From: Intoshia linei
Lineage: Eukaryota; Animalia; Orthonectida
DNA: 38,483 bases
Direction: 5' to 3'
Assembly (NCBI GenBank): GCA_001642005.1
Contig: LWCA01000227.1
Location: 1-38,483, forward strand
Position 1 is the stretch's first letter. Every line of letters begins with the position of its first letter. The notes below the pieces were generated by a model. That model had not been told where the DNA came from, did not search any database, and saw only the letters and a list, made by a program, of their open reading frames with translations. A program made the translations under genes and the position numbers. Shown in pieces: positions 24,933 through 34,600 of the stretch.

Positions 24933-26940
24933 ATGGATCCAACTCCAAACAAATTTAAATTCAATCCATTCTATATGGCAGCTTGTGGAGGTAATTTATA
25001 CTTGGCTGTATATAAAAAATTGATAAATTGAGAATACAGTCAGGCCTATCAATACTGCCATTTTGGTTTTTCGATATTTATGACGGCATGGAGAGTAAGG
25101 CGTTATAGAGAATATAACGGTGTACTGATATATATCATGAATACGGTTACTATGTAATATAAATAAGCAGTCATATTTTATGATTCATATAGTAAAATAA
25201 TAATAGAATGAAGTCATTTATTCAACAAATGCGTTTTAAATGTAAATAATTTGTAAATAAATTTAAATGTATTGTATTTGTTTGTAAATTTAATTATGGT
25301 TGGGTAAGTTATAGTTAAAATTAGATTAATAATTTCTATAATAATAGTTTATATTAAAATATTAATGATTTTAAATTAAGGGTCTAACTCATTTTAATCA
25401 ATTTTTTTTAAAATATTTTAAAATTGAAATAGTAGCGATATTGAGAAGGCTGACTGTACAGTGGACATGTAAAGTCAAAAATATATTTGATTAGTTTAGT
25501 GTTTTCTAATTATATTTTTAATCATTTTGATAGTTGCACGTCATTTTTTAAAACGGTGATATTACTTATTTTTATTGTTATAATTATACAACTTTTCAAC
25601 TATTTCTAATAAATCAGTTAAAATCTATTTTTGCCAAGCTTTTAAAGATGACTTTGAACATGTTTGAAAAATCAATATTTAGTCTATAATTGAACAAATT
25701 ATTAGATATATTTAATTAAACATGTTACAGAACTTTATTATAAAAAGTGCAAATAAAAATTTAAAGAGAATCAGAACCTTTTTTAATCCAAATTACTTGT
25801 ACATTTATTGAGATTAATACAACTAATGTCAACATTTAACGAATTTTGGAAACATTTCAAATTTAACATTTAAATTTATTTATTTGTTTACATTTATGTC
25901 ATTTACATAAAATATAGTTTTATATAGATTTTATAATTTTGGCGAGCTTATCCTGGGAGCAGACCGTTGATAGGGTTTAATGTAGCAGTTCCCAAATGGG
26001 GTACTGGGATCCTTAAGTGCAGAGCCGTTTTAAGGCATGGGCAATATGGGCTGTAGCCCAGGGCCACTCATTAAAAAAGGCTATAAATTAATAAAAGTAC
26101 TTTACATTTATATCTTAAAAAGAGGCCCCTAATTTATTAAAAAATACTTAACATTTATATCTTAAGAATCAGTTTATAAGTTTTGAAGTGTGGGAGTTCA
26201 AATAGCTAGAAAGAAAATAGTTTAAAGAATCAAAGTTCTGGTATTTATTCAATTCAAAATATATTCTACAATGTTCAACTTATAATAATAATAAAACGTC
26301 AAGATAAATTGCATTTGTGGAGGGTAAATATTATCCGATTTCAATTTTTTGTTAATAAATTTTAAAACGAAAAAGGCATTGACGTTTAAATGGCTTTTTC
26401 TAATAAAAAAAAAGTGGATACCCAACGACGGACCCTAATCATTAGGGTACTAATTCTAATCTAATAGGGAATGTTCATACCAATCAGTGATGTGGAAATA
26501 CCCAACTGTCACATAATATTTTACATAATAATAATGATAGTTAAAAAATGTATTTTAATAATAACCTATGTGGATCCATTCATCAAGTTTTACTTATTTA
26601 TCATTTTGTTAATTAAAAAGTGGACCATGGCCATTTAGAGGTCAGATCAATGAATGGATAAAGGCCAATTCTTTTTATTTTGATTTGGCCTTTTTCATTG
26701 TAAATGTTTCACTGTCCTGTCTAAGAGCCCATGAGTATTTTAAATGTATTTGTATATATATTTGTTTTAGGTTCATTTTTAACAGCTGGAGCTTTAGGTA
26801 AAGGCATTTACTCTTTTATTAAAAAAGATTCGGCCCAGCAAAGCAAATTTATGATGCTGAGATGTGGTCTGCAGTTTATGGCTCTCAGTCTTTTGACTTG
26901 TTCCTATTTTTACAAAAAGAGTAGTATGAAACATAAATAA
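24933..26940 (+). CDS. HIG1-domain family protein (HIGD2A/Rcf1-like), 2 exons, 75 aa
   Basis: Exon 24933-24990 (MDPTPNKFKFNPFYMAACG) joins in phase 1 to 26771-26940 (GSFLTAGALGKGIYSFIKKDSAQQSKFMMLRCGLQFMAL...), matching the HIG1 NP..TM-GLYSF..MMRxRxxxQ-TM pattern. Confidence 0.85.
25037..25456. mobile_element. pogo/Tigger-like MITE in the HIG1 intron
   Basis: TA|CAGTCAGGCCTATCAATA ... TATTGAGAAGGCTGACTG|TA. Confidence 0.72.
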
Positions 26941-27330: not shown

Positions 27331-28624
27331 ATTTTATTCTATTTATTTTAAAGTAGTAATGAAGAAAATGTTAATAATTTATAATTATAATTCAAATTAT
27401 TAATTCTACTCATGCTTAGTTGAAATAGCATTGTTCATCAAAGTGTTAACTTTTTGATCGAATTTTAGATATTAAAAAAATACAGGGCCGTATTTTTATA
27501 GCATCTTAATATTATTATTATTATTAATTATTAATATTATTACAAAAACATCGGCCTGTGCGTTTACAGGATATAACTAATTTTATGTTAAAAAAAGGAT
27601 ACATTGGGTTTTTGACATATTTAAATGGTTATTATAATTATTGACAGATATTGATAGTTATAGTTCATCAACATTTTTGAGAAAAAATTATGACCATTAT
27701 TTTAACTTATCGTCTCAGCCAGATATCTACAGTCGTAGTTACAACTTTTATCGTTGTGGACTCCACAATGTGGAGCCATTTTCTCATTTTATTTCATATT
27801 CAGCTAAATTCTCATGGACATATACAATAATGAAAAACAATAATTTGTGAAATATTGCTCCACTCTTATCCAAATATTACTTACTGTACTAGTGGATAGA
27901 TCAGTTTTTCCCAACCTTTTAAGTGTTATGCCCCACTTTTATCCTTACGAAATTTCCATGCCCCACCATAATTTGTAACAAATATTTCCATAGTAGTGTC
28001 CTAACAGATTTTTTTATGCATATATGATTTGTTTCATACAAAATGAATTAATATGATTTTTGAGTTTGGTGTTTTTTGCAAAAATTTTCTATTTGAAGTA
28101 CCATTTTTGTAATCTTTAAACGCAGAACTCCTCTTTTGATTATGTCCAATTCGCTGATATTAAAATTTAAAAAAACTATTTTATTACACCTAAAGCAGTG
28201 CTTCCCAAAGGGGTCCACGGCTAAAGTAATATATTATTTCAGGAATTAATTTAATATTATTATGGAGAAAATACTACTAAATTCAAATTCTAAAGAGTAA
28301 ATGGAAATTTATTAATCGTTAAGGGAAATATCCACTTAGTAAATTTTTTTTGAAAATTGCGTTTTTTCCGTACCTGACAAGAAAAAATATTCCCTAAAGC
28401 TTAGGACCAAAGTAACGTTTCAATGTCAAAGTAAATTTTGTGCGGCCGTAGTATCAATGGGTAAAGTAGTTTTGCGGCTGAATTGGTGGAAAGGTTGTGC
28501 ACCCTGTATTAATGAAGCTTGATTCTTGTTTAAAATTTTTTTGATGTACTATTTATTAGTCTATTAACTTTACAATTATTAATAACATTAAACTATATTA
28601 ATTTAACTTGACTGAGCGAGAGAA

Positions 28625-29271
28625 TTAAAAATGACCATGATATGGAGGTTGGTAAAAGTTTCCAAAATATCCAAAATCGTTGAAATCAGGAAAAGTCCAA
28701 TGGTTGACTGGATATTCAAGAGGGTATCCATCAAATAAATTTCCATGGGCATAATGACCAAAATTTCCATGATCGGCTAAATCTCCGTGGTTATCAAAAT
28801 GATTAAAATCGTGATGATTATGTCCATGCATTCCATGGTGGCCGTGGCGTCCATGATGACCGAGGCTTCCATGATGACCGAGGCTTCCATGATGACCGTG
28901 GAGTCCAAGGTTACCATGATGTCCAAGATGACCATCATCACCGAAGTGTCCGCGATGACCATGGTGTCCTTGATGACCGTGGAGTCCGTGATGTCCATGG
29001 AATCCGTGGTGTCCATGATTGCCGTGATGGGCATGGTGTCCATGTCTACCAAAATGAATTTCATCACCGAAATGGTCGTCATCACCAAAGTGTCCGTGGT
29101 GTCTGCTCATTCCGTGATGTCCATGATGCCCGTAACCGTGCATTCCGTGGTGTCCATGATTTCCGTGATCGTGGAAGGCTATAGAATCTGATAAATATTG
29201 AAAGTTTAATAATTACCTTGCGACGTAACAAATAGCAAAAAGAATGTTGCAAATACAATAGATAAATTCAT
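28625..29271 (-). CDS. Secreted histidine/glycine-rich Gly-X-Y repeat protein, 205 aa, 2 exons
   Basis: Exon 29271-29217 encodes signal-like MNLSIVFATFFLLFVTSQ; 29-nt GT..CAG intron 29216-29188; exon 29187-28625 continues in frame (DSIAFHDHGNHGHHG...PPYHGHF*). Confidence 0.88.
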
Positions 29272-29729
29272 GTTGAAATAATTGTAAATGGTGATAAAAA
29301 ATATTTTTGAAAATTTGAAACAATTTAGAAATCAAATGTCGTAAAATGACCAGAAAATATATTAAACATCAATTAGTTCATCAACAATTGATGTTTGTTA
29401 TGTTTAGAATATTATTAATCTACATGTACAATTATTATCTTGTTTAAACGATCTATATACTTAGGTTATGTTTAATATTTTGTAAATGCATGATTGTCAA
29501 GTAGCACAGATTTAACAAGCATGTACTATGTAAACATTACCATTTTTATTTGAATAAAAAGGAAAATTATTACGTTTAGATAAAAGATTATTAATAATTC
29601 AACTTTCATTAAAAACTAATCCATTTACAATATTCAATTGTAAATGGATACTTAATTGATTTAAATCATACAAATCGAAAACGTAGCCGGACATGATAAA
29701 AAATTAGTTTATTTATTTACAAAAATAAT

Positions 29730-31252
29730 TTAATGGGTTTTTTTTTGTTTAGATTTTGGTCCCCAATTAGGTAACGGATTATGTTGCCATCTAAGTAATT
29801 TTTTTTCTTGAGAAACTGGTACAACCTTTGGATGTATATTGAAATTAATAGAATCAATGGGAACGTTGAATTTGGAATTTAAAATAATTTTCATAAAATT
29901 AAATTTCGGCAAATCAATATTTTTTGACGTGACATCATTTTCAAGTAATAATTTCTTCATCATTGTCCAAATAAAAAAAAAGGGAGCATCTGTTTTAATA
30001 GATTCCGGACACGCATGAAAAAGAGAGACATGATATCCAGCATTTAAAATGCAAGAATTTAAAAATTTAATGGGAATAGATGCAAGTTTTGTCTTTGAAA
30101 AAATATCCCTAATGGTAAAATAGAATGGACAGTTTTGTAATTCTTCTGAAACAAGAGACAATGTACCGTAAATCCGTTTTAAAGTACGATATGGATTATC
30201 TTCATCCAATTCCTCAACAAATTTCAATAAACCTGAAACAAACTCATAATTATGAATTTTATCATTCCAAATTGGACCCCATAGTTTTTTACGTCCTCCA
30301 CAAATCAAACAGTTTTCATTTATATTAACAATTGACGGTCTGTATTTGTTTTTAATTTGATTTTCAGGTTTAACATTTTTTCTGAGGGATTTATTTGACA
30401 CGTCCAATGACACGAGAGGGATAAATTCAAAAGAATGGCATTGTACACAACTCACGACACGTGATAATTTTAATATTGATTTTTTTACCTTTTGTGCACC
30501 GTGATGAATTTTAACAAAAACTCTAACATAAAAATCTACACTTATTGATAATAACGGTTCAATAAACTTTCCATATCTATTGGCATGATTGTTGATACTT
30601 TGTAAAAGTATTCTAAGGCAAGATTCATTGAAATATGGAGTTTTGTGTGACACAGAACCGTAGTACGCATAGCATGTTTCCGGCGTATTGCCTACCAAAA
30701 CACTAGTGTCCGTGCACGTAACACAAATCAAACCGCCGTCAGATATTGATTGGACCGCTGAATCGAGAAATGGTGCAGCAGTTCCATATGGATCCAAATC
30801 TATTACATCAAAGGTATTTATATTTTGAAGCATTACCAATTTTGCGTCATTTATTGAAATTTTTACTCGGTCAGAGACATCATTTCTATCAATGTTTTTC
30901 TGAATTGTATCTTTTACGTGTGGGGATATATCATTAACTATAATTTCATCAATTTCGTTTATTTCTGTCGCATATCTTATCCCTCGTAAACCTAAATGTT
31001 AAAATTGTTTTTTAGAAAATTTGAGTAAATGATTAACGTTTTACCTGTAGCGCTCATTGCATCCAGTAATTTGATTTTTTTATCGTGATTATTCGAATTA
31101 TTCTTTTTTTTATTTGTTATAAAATTTTTTATAATTAATGAACTTATATCACGGTTAAATTCCTGTACAGGATTGTAGAATGCACCATTACATAGTTCAA
31201 TACAAGAATTTCCTTCTTTTATTATATTATTGGCATCTTTATCAAAAGGCAT
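29730..31252 (-). CDS. TRMT1: tRNA (guanine-26-N2)-dimethyltransferase Trm1, 2 exons
   Basis: FYNPVQEFNRDIS, LDAMSATG|LRGIRY (intron 30992-31044), FDVIDLDPYGTAAPFLDSAVQ, LSISVDFYVRVFV, GPIW, SIKTDAP, NWGPK. Confidence 0.97.
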
Positions 31253-32166
31253 TTTAATGTTTTTCAATTTTGAACGTTTGATAATTTGAATAAAATTAGG
31301 TTTATATTGAACTGTTATGATAATTTAACATGCTTTCAAAATTAAAATTTATTCAATTATTTTATATTTCTGTCAAAGATTTGTAAGGCTTTCAAAGTTT
31401 TAAAAAAAGTTATATGCAAACACAGACTATCAATTTTAAAAGTATTTTACAGTGCATTCTATTTACACAGATACTAAACCAGATTTTTTTAATTTAAATA
31501 TACTTTAAGATTACTCTATTTTTATAGAAATTATAAGGTGTTTCAATTTTCAGTGTACAAAAATTAATTCAAAAAGTTGAAAAATATTCAGGGATAATGT
31601 ACTAAAATTAATTTTCACCAGGAATTTATGCATTTCTGAAATTTAAATTATATAAATATTATTTTATTTTATATTTTTTTTTGTTGTTTTTAAATTTTTA
31701 TAACAAAGATATTAAAACAGGATATTTATATTTTTTGACCACGAGCACTTTCATTTCAGAGATTGAAATTTTTCAGTACACTATGAATATTGTTATGAAA
31801 AATTGTAAAATAGAGTGTTCTTTTTTATTATTATTATTAGGAAAATCCATTTTGCACGTGGATGCTTTTTTTGATTTTAAGCATTAATCCAAAATAAATG
31901 AAATCGGTTAATATTTACCCTCTCAAATGTAATTATTGAAATTCACCAAAAATGTTAAGATAAATGAAAAATATCACTTATCTTATGTATAATCAGCTTT
32001 AATTTTGTTTCTATGGATCATTATGTTGGTAATTCCTTTGATGGATTTACCACGCTTTGTGGATCATTTTGTTTTTGTTTTTTTTTAATTCATTTCTAGC
32101 TCATTTATGCTCATACGCGCAAAATTAAACGGTATTGAGAAAAGAAAAATACATAATGAAAACAAG

Positions 32167-33881
32167 TCAATGTTTATCTTTATTTTTACGTATATCAAAT
32201 GTTTTAGCAATAATAATTGTTACTGCCATGAGACCAAAAGCTAGTGGAAATCCATGTAGCAAGGAAACACTGTTTTTAATCAATGAGTGACTTAGCGGTA
32301 TGCCTTCATATACCCAAACATAGTTTCTAAATATTAAAATTACATATTGAATGATGGTAAATACCATATACAACAGTGGTTATCAACTTATTTGTTCTCA
32401 TTCCCCCTTGATTAATTTAATATATTTTTTCAGACCCTCCATTATGTATTAGAAATACATGTATATTAAAATTAGAATAGTATTTACAACCCTGATTAAT
32501 GAGAATTTTGAGATTTGTTTTTGTTGATTCCAAAATACAAGTTTGAGTAGAAGAAAGAGCACTATGTAAATCGTATTCAACGTTTAATCTGCTTATTTTA
32601 TTATTTTGTATATCTAAAAGACGTGATAGTCCACATTCACATAAGTACGTTGATACTAAATATTACAAATTCTAATAGCTTGTCCTCCATGCTTAGAGTA
32701 TGAATTACACATCTTTGACCAACATTTTGTTATTTATTCTTCAGCATATACATCTTTCGCACCCACATCATTAATTTATTTTTTAATGAATTAATCTGAA
32801 TTTTCAATTTCCCCGTTCAAATAGTAAAATTATCCTTATTGAAAACCACTGATATACAAGGTATGTAATGTTTCCAACCAGTTATTGATACTGTGGAACG
32901 AAACTGTTAATTGAATACCACCACAGTAAAATCTCAAAAAGTGACCACTTTTTTGGGCAACTGATTACTTTTAAGATCACGATTTTTAGTTGTGGTATTT
33001 ATTAAACTAATTACTTGATATTTAACAATAAAATGGACGAAATATATGATTAATAAATAAATCTACGAATATTATTTATTAACTCAATCCAGAAAATATA
33101 TTAGAAATAAGATGCTATTTGTAATACACGTACAATGTACGTCATACATGTATATTTAGTTATTTATATACGTATTAACACGTATATTTATTCATTTATA
33201 TACGTATTAACACAGTGGTTTTCAACCGGGGGTCGCGAATTTATCAGGGGGTCGTGAGAATTTAAACACAGTATAAAATATAAATAAAACTGAATATGCT
33301 TTTTTAATATTTTCATTTATGTAAATTGATAAGATGTTTGGAGTATATAGAAAATTTTTGGGTCGCGAAAATTTTTAATGTTTATAAGAGAGTCGCAAAC
33401 ACAAAAAGGTTGAAAACCACTGTATTAACACGTATATTTATTCTTACAAATATAATATGCTATGCAGTATTTGTAAGTGTGTTACTATTTATTTCAATAA
33501 CTAACAGTCTTAGAATTTTATAAAGTCCATATTTCAATTACAGTTTTTTTAAGGGGGGTTATAGTTATATAAGTAAGGATACTGTCTAATAAATTAAAAA
33601 AATGTGCCGTGTCATGATATAATGTATATTATACTAAATTCGCTAAAATGTTTTAAAAATTATATTCTATCATTCGCCGAAAATTTTGAATTCCCGATTT
33701 GCGACAGCGAATAATGGGCCTCACTGTATTTACGTAATAAAAAATTAAAATACCTTAACCATGGATCTCGCAAACCTAGAGCTTTAAGTTTTTGATGTGT
33801 ATCCCAAAGTTTTGGAGCATCTTGAAGTTTCCAAGATTTGATATCTGGTGGCCAATTGTGACAGTACCAATCACCGCCCAT
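32167..33881 (-). CDS. NDUFB3: NADH:ubiquinone oxidoreductase subunit B3 (B12), 2 exons, 95 aa
   Basis: Exon 33881-33754 (PDIKSWKL...QKLKALGLRDPWLR) joins 32326-32167 (NYVWVY...GFPLAFGLMAVTIII); GLRDPWxRNxxWxY signature plus one TM helix. Confidence 0.92.
32374..32851. mobile_element. hAT (Charlie/Buster-type) MITE, 478 bp, in the NDUFB3 intron
   Basis: TIRs CAGTGGTTATCAA / TTGAAAACCACTG; perfect 8-bp TSD ATATACAA. Confidence 0.9.
33213..33422. mobile_element. hAT (Charlie/Buster-type) MITE, 210 bp, in the NDUFB3 intron
   Basis: Perfect 15-bp TIRs CAGTGGTTTTCAACC / GGTTGAAAACCACTG; perfect 8-bp TSD TATTAACA; internal GGTCGCG repeats. Confidence 0.93.
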
Positions 33882-34395
33882 AATATTTAATTTTTATTAG
33901 AATATTTTAAATAAAAATAAACAACAATTCTTATTACACTTAAATTTTATTGTATCAATGGCATTTTTTATTTGGACAATATTATGACATACGAGCACGT
34001 GTCGTGGGCAAATAGTCTAGGTAGGCCGGGTATAAAATATTTATCTATTTATTCCAGTGGTGTAGCGTGACTTTTCTCACAAGGTATGCGGGAATGGTGC
34101 CTTGGTAACATTTTAAATTCAAATTCTATACTAAGCACCAATTATAATTTTTTATACCCATACCCATAACTAGTGCTTGCTCTTGTTAAAAATCTCGAGA
34201 AATTTAAATATTCTTAAATTTAAAATTATATTTGAAAATTTCCAAAAATGTAGTTTCTTATATGAATGCAAAAATAATCATTTTTATTGTTAATTTTCGC
34301 TAATAAATTTAAGCAAGTAAAAACAAAATTATTTTAGTTATTAAAATAATAAAAGAACATTAAATATTACGGTATTTACTTTCAAAATGTGTACA

Positions 34396-34494
34396 ATTCA
34401 TGAAACTACATACAACAGTATAATGAAGTGCGATGTTGATACCCGAAAAGATTTGTACGCTAATACCGTTTTGTCTGGTGAAACTACTATATTC
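34396..34494 (+). pseudogene. Isolated actin gene fragment (about residues 274-306)
   Basis: [33 protein letters not shown] vs canonical [33 protein letters not shown]; no other actin sequence seen nearby. Confidence 0.9.
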
Positions 34495-34600
34495 GTGAAT
34501 TTTTTAACTTTTGAACGTGAATTTATTTTTTTGTATAATAAAAATGTGCCCTCGCCAGAGCTAGGTGCTGTTTGTACATAGTACATAACAATCAACCTAG
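34495..34600 (+). mobile_element. Helitron-like 3' end, copy G, abutting the actin fragment
   Basis: Reverse complement of the start of copies B, C and E; ends in the hairpin plus CAAC-CTAG|T. Confidence 0.78.

Follow-up and report, generated by a model that had tools for sequence, protein, structure and literature searches.

The window, that is, the whole stretch of 38,483 nucleotides analysed here (contig LWCA01000227.1), is a eukaryotic contig of Intoshia linei with 26% GC, in which genes for RPB6, RhoGAP, IFT122, TRM1, a claudin-like protein, a lipase and a HIG1 protein lie. Orthonectids are reduced parasites with a position in or near the Annelida and a microvillar cuticle, whose plasmodium lives inside an invertebrate host and whose ciliated adults are released (as outlined in PMC6543705 and PMC12249979). 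The neighbouring genes are spliced at canonical introns of 35-1,780 nt in contigs of runs X2, X3, X4 and X6, and the TRM1 frame that adjoins the gene described below is 100% identical to I. linei A3Q56_02436. That gene, on the minus strand with its ATG at 29271 and its stop at 28625-28627, encodes a protein dominated by Gly and His with a predicted signal peptide. The gene is real: it is spliced and has two exons, its spliced mRNA being known from one contig (Table 1).

Table 1. Features of the Gly/His gene (window positions) and microbial loci with a leader and a His-loaded Gly-X-Y run (locus:positions)
Feature	Position	Strand	Details
Coding part of exon 1 (55 nt), encoding most of the predicted signal peptide	29217..29271	-	ATG and hydrophobic core; joined to exon 2 in an X4 contig
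38-nt GT..AG intron, in-frame stop if retained	29179..29216	-	Joint 29178/29217, run X4, 1 contig
First 51 aa of the predicted mature chain	29024..29176	-	Interrupted Gly/His triplets and acidic HFGD[D/E] motifs
Core, 23 uninterrupted Gly-X-Y triplets	28817..29023	-	9/18-nt DNA repeats; Pfam Collagen 60.1 bits
63-aa tail, aromatic-rich, no known domain	28628..28816	-	No Pfam family, no homologue found
AATAAA, candidate polyadenylation signal, ~70 nt past the stop	28552..28557	-	Inferred from sequence; no poly(A) read seen there
Thermoanaerobaculia	L205:1366-1746		27 triplets, leader
Pirellulales	L195:1474-1839		26 triplets, leader
Sorangium (set of three)	L156:1417-1854, L193:1321-1698, L139:1402-1755		23, 17, 12 triplets, leader
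Nitrososphaerales archaeon	L216:181-450		16 triplets, leader
Further leader and His-loaded Gly-X-Y ORFs, same set of microbial groups	L230; L022:1183-1491		12-27 triplets across the set

Exon 1 is hydrophobic and contributes 18 codons, and its donor at 29216 can be paired in frame with two GT..AG acceptors, giving an intron of 29 or 38 nt. The original prediction had placed a signal-peptide exon upstream of a 29-nt intron and proposed reads across 29188-29216 as the check. Minus-strand splicing of such an exon to exon 2 was indeed seen, with the leader recognised by hydropathy, but the acceptor differs: the sole joint in the contigs of four runs skips 38 nt (one X4 contig, starting at 29285, depth 2.8, with 69 letters on the short side), and the 29-nt intron, for which these contigs held no joint, was rejected. 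A size of 38 nt also resembles the 35-67 nt introns of neighbouring genes. Because the only joint seen skips 38 nt, the supported product is 202 aa rather than the 205 aa obtained with the 29-nt intron. Under both intron models a -3/-1 small-residue site precedes the same predicted mature start at 29176, and the predicted mature chain of 183 aa is therefore the same; the signal peptide itself is predicted from hydropathy (9-residue mean up to 2.9) and the -3/-1 rule.

The intron, with its in-frame stop, is retained in the X2 and X3 contigs over the gene (the X2 contig starts at 29290), that is, in two of the three RNA-like runs covering it. This retention may represent pre-mRNA or background, and it counts against the gene being strongly expressed in the samples concerned. 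Run X1, which is unspliced over the gene, is probably DNA, and the X6 contigs splice the neighbours without reaching the Gly/His gene. The splice evidence comes from assembled contigs, which give no measure of expression level, and depths over the gene were low. Three unspliced readings of exon 2 had no exact match in the protein collection; the gene is probably unannotated, the look-up having taken those unspliced readings. Three ORFs of 109-136 aa in other frames over the repeat were set aside as shadows, being without a leader while the splice lies on the minus strand.

Several other features of the window were recorded. Directly 3' of the Gly/His gene, positions 28420-28506 hold an 85-bp element with copies in many other contigs (90-95% identity, differing flanks, all four runs compared), which is either a short interspersed repeat of many copies or part of a MITE; an inverted repeat at 33183-33452 (45-nt arms around 180 nt) and a piece of very high depth with loose ends at 34395-34532 are further MITE-like or repeated elements. 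The HIG1-family gene (24934-26930) has two exons, is spliced in four runs and carries pieces of multi-copy repeats in its 1,780-nt intron. A public model of 597 aa at 29730-33907 (P0002) bears Pfam TRM and NDUF_B12 domains and is probably two genes fused by annotation, since RNA contigs separate TRM1 (29708-31326) from a spliced transcript at 32167-33939 (1,427-nt intron). In a single X3 contig (depth 4.8), 30945 is joined back to 29273 via 34 foreign letters, probably a chance fit in AT-rich sequence.

The predicted mature chain of 20.7 kDa is 31% His and 23.5% Gly (54.6% together), with 16 acidic and 4 basic residues, 7 Tyr and neither Cys nor Lys. The composition first reported for the protein (205 aa with 57 His, 43 Gly, no Cys and no Lys) is exact under the 29-nt intron, and its description in terms of a proline-free run of 23 uninterrupted Gly-X-Y triplets, acidic HFGDD inserts and a tail rich in Phe, Tyr, Asp, Asn and Pro was reproduced on recounting. 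The run was found at 29023-28817; three HFGD[D/E] motifs were counted; and Phe/Tyr/Trp make up 17 of the 63 tail residues, which also include Asp, Asn, His and all 5 Pro of the protein. Within the 69-aa core there are 14 distinct triplets, His occupies 13 X and 14 Y positions (27/46), neither Gly nor Ala occurs at X or Y, and there is no break or indel; the core holds 2 Arg and 2 Asp, no Pro, Lys or Thr, and at Y only 1 Arg and 1 Gln. The last 12 triplets of the N-terminal 51 aa keep the phase of the core; Gly is missing from 4 of these. Throughout the chain no more than two His stand in a row and Gly is always single (no Gly-Gly), with 15 His-His and 12 His-Gly-His pairs. The computed charge of the mature chain moves from +41.5 at pH 5 through +16 at pH 6 to -7.3 at pH 7 and -12.3 at pH 8. 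The structure prediction that had been proposed was run for the monomer, from the single sequence with no alignment as input: AlphaFold2 returned no confident fold (pLDDT 46) and no helix or strand of note, which is weak evidence in support of disorder.

When the Gly/His region was shuffled 100,000 times the longest Gly-X-Y run was 11, against the 23 observed, so the register is not a product of chance. At the DNA level the core is a 9/18-nt repeat that has decayed: its 23 units comprise 19 distinct 9-mers and include one recent exact duplication. So that the run should not be defined by Gly itself, all 35 in-phase triplets were counted: the first position was non-Gly in 4 of 35, whereas X and Y were non-His in 29 of 70 (p=0.002), and codon positions 1-2 were changed in 5 of 70 cases for Gly versus 39 of 140 for X/Y (p=0.0003), with third codon positions varying equally (17, 17 and 17 of 35). 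The four triplets that have lost Gly are clustered towards the N terminus (p about 0.01, with boundaries chosen after looking). Judged from these substitutions, the Gly/His repeat is old and Gly has been held more firmly than His, and because Gly has been held so much more strictly, the register looks selected.

Searches for relatives recovered the period rather than the protein. A word search with the whole protein, over a limited length range, gave one weak match among 1,209 candidates (P0001, E=2.1), and the 63-aa tail alone, which had been suggested as a query for paralogues, gave no candidate and thus no homologue among the proteins searched. The ESM Atlas held no usable match for the whole chain or for residues 1-125. 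HMMER against 1.84 billion representatives returned 10,732 matches, of which the best 150 were all long (608-4,756 aa) Gly-X-Y proteins with 33-40% identity and at most 2.9% His, and the PDB matches were collagens and similar repeats; both sets reflect nothing but the Gly period. Neither Glycera MTP nor the Nereis/Alitta proteins Nvjp-1 and Nai11527 were among the word-search matches or the best 150 of the 10,732, and the tail search brought up neither MTP nor Nvjp-1, in searches blunted by low complexity. No orthologue, and in particular no clear orthology to a characterised protein, was found by the word search, the tail search, the best 150 of the 10,732 HMMER matches or the ESM Atlas, and the gene appears to be an orphan of Intoshia linei. 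Outside subscription journals, and among the best-ranked papers, our search found none on the Intoshia protein or on natural His-loaded Gly-X-Y helices. The suggestion of a lineage-specific secreted protein that would bind metal agrees with everything observed: the failure to find an orthologue, the charge swing, a composition and a set of tripeptides close to those of Glycera MTP, and an orthonectid source, with its cuticle and its place in or near the Annelida.

It had also been suggested that the register might imply a collagen or polyglycine-II fold. A run of 23 triplets is long enough for a triple helix, and the core scores 60.1 bits against Pfam Collagen (PF01391; cut-off 27.2), while the N-terminal part, at 15.5 bits, falls below. 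For comparison we used the 150 best HMMER matches as controls (28,898 triplets; 14,530 overlapping 23-triplet windows). Since 2,178 of the 14,530 windows were free of Pro, the lack of Pro is unremarkable by itself, but the 27/46 His at X/Y compare with at most 7/46 in any of these windows. The X:Y distribution of Leu plus Phe was 3:5 in the core versus 5:1 in the controls (p=0.004, or 0.016 without the duplicated unit; the numbers are small). X/Y asymmetry was 0.07 bit per triplet versus 2.8 +/- 1.1, a value as low as this being seen in 0.8% of 624 control windows, in a comparison where the controls were chosen by similarity and also set their own frequencies and where His at X and Y carries little information. 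The controls have 22.6% Pro at X and 28% Gln and 25% Thr at Y; the core is without the known collagen stabilisers, having no imino acids, 1 Arg, 1 Gln and no Thr at Y and no Lys-Asp/Glu pairs. Neither Pfam nor the homologue search revealed a known trimerisation domain (NC, V or C1q-type) in the tail or the N-terminal 51 aa, and no Pfam family other than the Gly repeat was found there; the tail might still nucleate a trimer in some novel way. Polyglycine-II bundles of the snow flea antifreeze type are made up of short Gly-X-X helices and regular turns, Gly or Ala being frequent at X; the Intoshia core has no Gly or Ala at X/Y and runs unbroken for 69 residues, and AlphaFold2 gave no bundle (at low confidence). 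Low-hydroxyproline collagens, as described in PMC3790195, are stabilised by Pro at X, Arg at Y and ion pairs. The constraint on Gly thus speaks for a fold drawn from the register, and the absence of X/Y asymmetry, together with a Pfam match equalled by (Gly-His-His)n, speaks against it; either fold would be weakly supported at best, and on the present tests the protein is not to be filed as a collagen.

The latter point emerged from a search for look-alikes with a degenerate DNA motif for the hexapeptide unit. The motif was found at 10 viral, at least 119 metagenomic and at least 120 prokaryotic loci; among these at least 249 loci, at least 81 had 9 or more uninterrupted triplets and at least 7 had 22 or more, although many of the look-alike loci are probably other-frame shadows. 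A Met followed by a hydrophobic leader preceded 21 of the 79 distinct runs of at least 9 triplets among the matches listed, including runs in unrelated microbes that consist purely of (Gly-His-His)n, are 21-27 triplets long and follow a signal peptide. The Sorangium ORFs (Table 1) form one family with shared flanks, changing X/Y residues and variable repeat number. The Pfam Collagen cut-off was passed by 6 of the 10 look-alikes scanned, and the NCBIfam cut-off was reached by none; because (Gly-His-His)n microbial peptides also pass, a Pfam Collagen match means little. These microbial peptides share with the Intoshia protein the hydrophobic leader, 12-27 His-loaded triplets and the triplets GHH, GFH, GHR and GHQ, but they have 1-5 distinct triplets as compared to 14 and no alignable flanks, and are uncharacterised and convergent. 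A secreted His-loaded Gly-X-Y run has thus arisen many times, which makes the pattern less novel, and the microbial ORFs may possibly constitute an overlooked class of secreted metal-binding peptides. The Intoshia run is more diverged than these, with Gly fixed, and this keeps a structural reading alive. A separate metagenome record (L056:584-1270, minus strand) encodes a eukaryote-like, His/Gly/Tyr-rich protein of 229 aa, putatively secreted and bearing two dibasic sites of the KREA type; BLASTP gave no alignment between it and the Intoshia protein.

The reading that we favour, with a probability of about 0.5, is that the gene encodes a secreted, mostly disordered Zn/Cu-binding protein that would condense at the pH of seawater and that resembles Glycera MTP and Nereis Nvjp-1 by convergence; it would probably serve as a glue or hardener whose setting depends on metal and pH. 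In an acidic secretory vesicle the His residues would be charged (+41 to +16 at pH 5-6) and the chain soluble and extended. Upon secretion into seawater or host fluid at pH 7-8 the 57 His would lose their charge (-7 to -12), and the His-His and His-Gly-His pairs, together with the Asp-Asp inserts, would become Zn/Cu ligands bridging chains. The aromatic tail might then act as a sticker block for coacervation, with the Gly register spacing His pairs on an extended chain rather than closing a triple helix; the cuticle or the product of a gland is the probable site, with synthesis confined to a brief stage of the life cycle. This reading is consistent with the spliced contig, the composition, the charge swing, the counts of His-pair motifs and the annelid-type cuticle of orthonectids, and the order of leader, Gly-His-His run and, often, aromatic tail recurs in unrelated microbes without a trimerisation domain. 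It accounts only loosely for 23/23 Gly among 14 different triplets. To our knowledge orthonectids have no jaws and no other hard part, which counts against it, as does the fact that the spliced form was seen on one low-depth contig and the intron was retained in two RNA-like runs.

The Intoshia protein shares with the Gly/His-rich sclerotising proteins of the MTP and Nvjp-1 type a predicted signal peptide and a Gly plus His content above about half. As described in PMC9999432, Glycera MTP is a secreted protein built of GGH/GHG, GGHH and HHG/GHH repeats with at most two Gly or His in a row, and it takes up Cu and undergoes phase separation; for Nvjp-1, a coil at pH 5, Zn induces assembly into fibrils at the pH of seawater; and aromatic residues drive the condensation of such proteins. 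Zn is bound through imidazole in Nereis jaws (an account given in PMC13120676), and Zn and pH drive the setting of a mussel glue protein that is rich in His (PMC13022425, likewise). MTP resembles the Intoshia protein in its annelid origin, signal peptide, dominance of Gly and His, tripeptides that include GHH, no more than two His in a row, and charged inserts, but differs in having 49% Gly, 40% His, mixed tri- and tetrapeptides, Lys and no Tyr and, judged from the review description, no long strict register (PMC9999432); the Intoshia protein, at 23.5% Gly and 31% His, has no Gly-Gly, a single register for 23 triplets and an aromatic tail, and comes from a jawless animal. Nvjp-1 and Nai11527 (Nereis/Alitta) are likewise secreted and Gly/His-rich with Asp and aromatics, Zn-imidazole binding being described for them (PMC13120676, PMC9999432), but they are larger (32-53 kDa versus 20.7 kDa). 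Because the repeats of Nvjp-1-like sequences follow no regular pattern and include runs of poly-Gly and poly-His (three sequences of the PMC13120676 supplement, compared by eye), the Intoshia protein is a look-alike and not a demonstrated homologue.

Other readings of the same data were weighed against this one. That the protein is an HRP2-like soluble secretion with which the parasite ties up Zn, Cu or heme of its host, or serves as an antimicrobial rich in His, is rather unlikely. His is the second residue of the predicted mature chain, an arrangement that binds Cu, and with no Cys or Lys and only 7 Tyr the chain offers little for covalent cross-links, both of which fit such a role, as does a trophic stage that is a plasmodium living in an invertebrate host (stated in PMC6543705). 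HRP2 of Plasmodium falciparum, from its descriptions in bioRxiv 10.1101/2021.11.19.469193 and PMC4232395, is a heme-binding protein that the parasite secretes, built of tripeptides of the form small-residue-His-His among which Asp is inserted, and shows that a tripeptide register can exist without collagen; however, it has Ala at the first position, no aromatic tail and an unrelated lineage, and only one Ala-His-His triplet occurs in the Intoshia protein. A first-position Gly where HRP2 has Ala, along with the aromatic tail, is more in keeping with a protein that forms a material. Decidedly unlikely, in our view, is a young, weakly expressed repeat-born ORF of little function whose register is the footprint of 9/18-nt DNA duplications. 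The repeat structure with its one recent exact duplication, the failure to find an orthologue, the retained intron in two of three RNA-like runs and the many (Gly-His-His)n runs elsewhere that are simple repeats all favour it; against it, the third positions of codons have reached saturation with the Gly codons preserved, 19 distinct 9-mers remain among the 23 units, and a stop-free frame of 202 codons at 44.5% GC stands in a 26% GC window with a leader, a canonical intron and a candidate poly(A) signal.

A metal-stapled collagen, in which three chains would form a proline-free triple helix of ~20 nm, nucleated by the tail, with His-Zn/Cu bridges on its surface and a use in the cuticle, is unlikely. 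What commends it is the perfect period (Gly at 23/23 first positions and nowhere at X or Y, with no indel), the change of Gly in 4/35 against 29/70 for His while third codon positions are equal, the location of the Gly losses at the N-terminal end, a pattern shared with short collagens whose C-terminal part is perfect (a post hoc comparison), and a Pfam Collagen score above the cut-off, in addition to the unusual compositions of annelid cuticle collagens (as reported in PMC11766948). Set against this, a core with no Pro, 2 Arg, 2 Asp and no Lys lacks the known stabilisers, the Leu plus Phe ratio and the near-zero X/Y asymmetry depart from the controls, no known trimerisation domain was found, and pure (Gly-His-His)n itself scores 38-52 bits on Pfam Collagen. 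His is, moreover, destabilising in collagen host-guest peptides. Collagens (PF01391) are thus alike in their uninterrupted Gly-X-Y over 23 triplets, the Pfam cut-off passed and 33-40% identity, but the Intoshia protein differs from them in its 27/46 His and in the other respects given above. Mussel byssal preCols, as described in PMC6477608, also combine a collagen register with His-Zn cross-linking in one secreted chain; their His-rich domains flank the collagen domain, whereas in Intoshia, where metal binding is predicted, the His lie inside the Gly-X-Y run. The boldest form of this alternative, similarly doubtful, would be a natural proline-free collagen in which His-metal bridges within the run switch on and hold the helix, as the animal member of a convergent class that includes bacteria and archaea.

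The Gly/His-rich metal-set proteins of worm jaws, squid beak and mussel byssus are irregular or have their His-rich parts flanking collagen. In Intoshia the His residues lie within a strict register of collagen type, and the animal itself is among the most reduced. As a 20-kDa Cys-free chain that can be made in bacteria without modification, the protein can address whether metal replaces proline in a natural triple helix, and the answer would also bear on the overlooked microbial peptides with a leader and (Gly-His-His)n. If the protein is only a disordered metal-binding protein, it would be a modest addition to those known and would provide a handle on the orthonectid cuticle or secretions.
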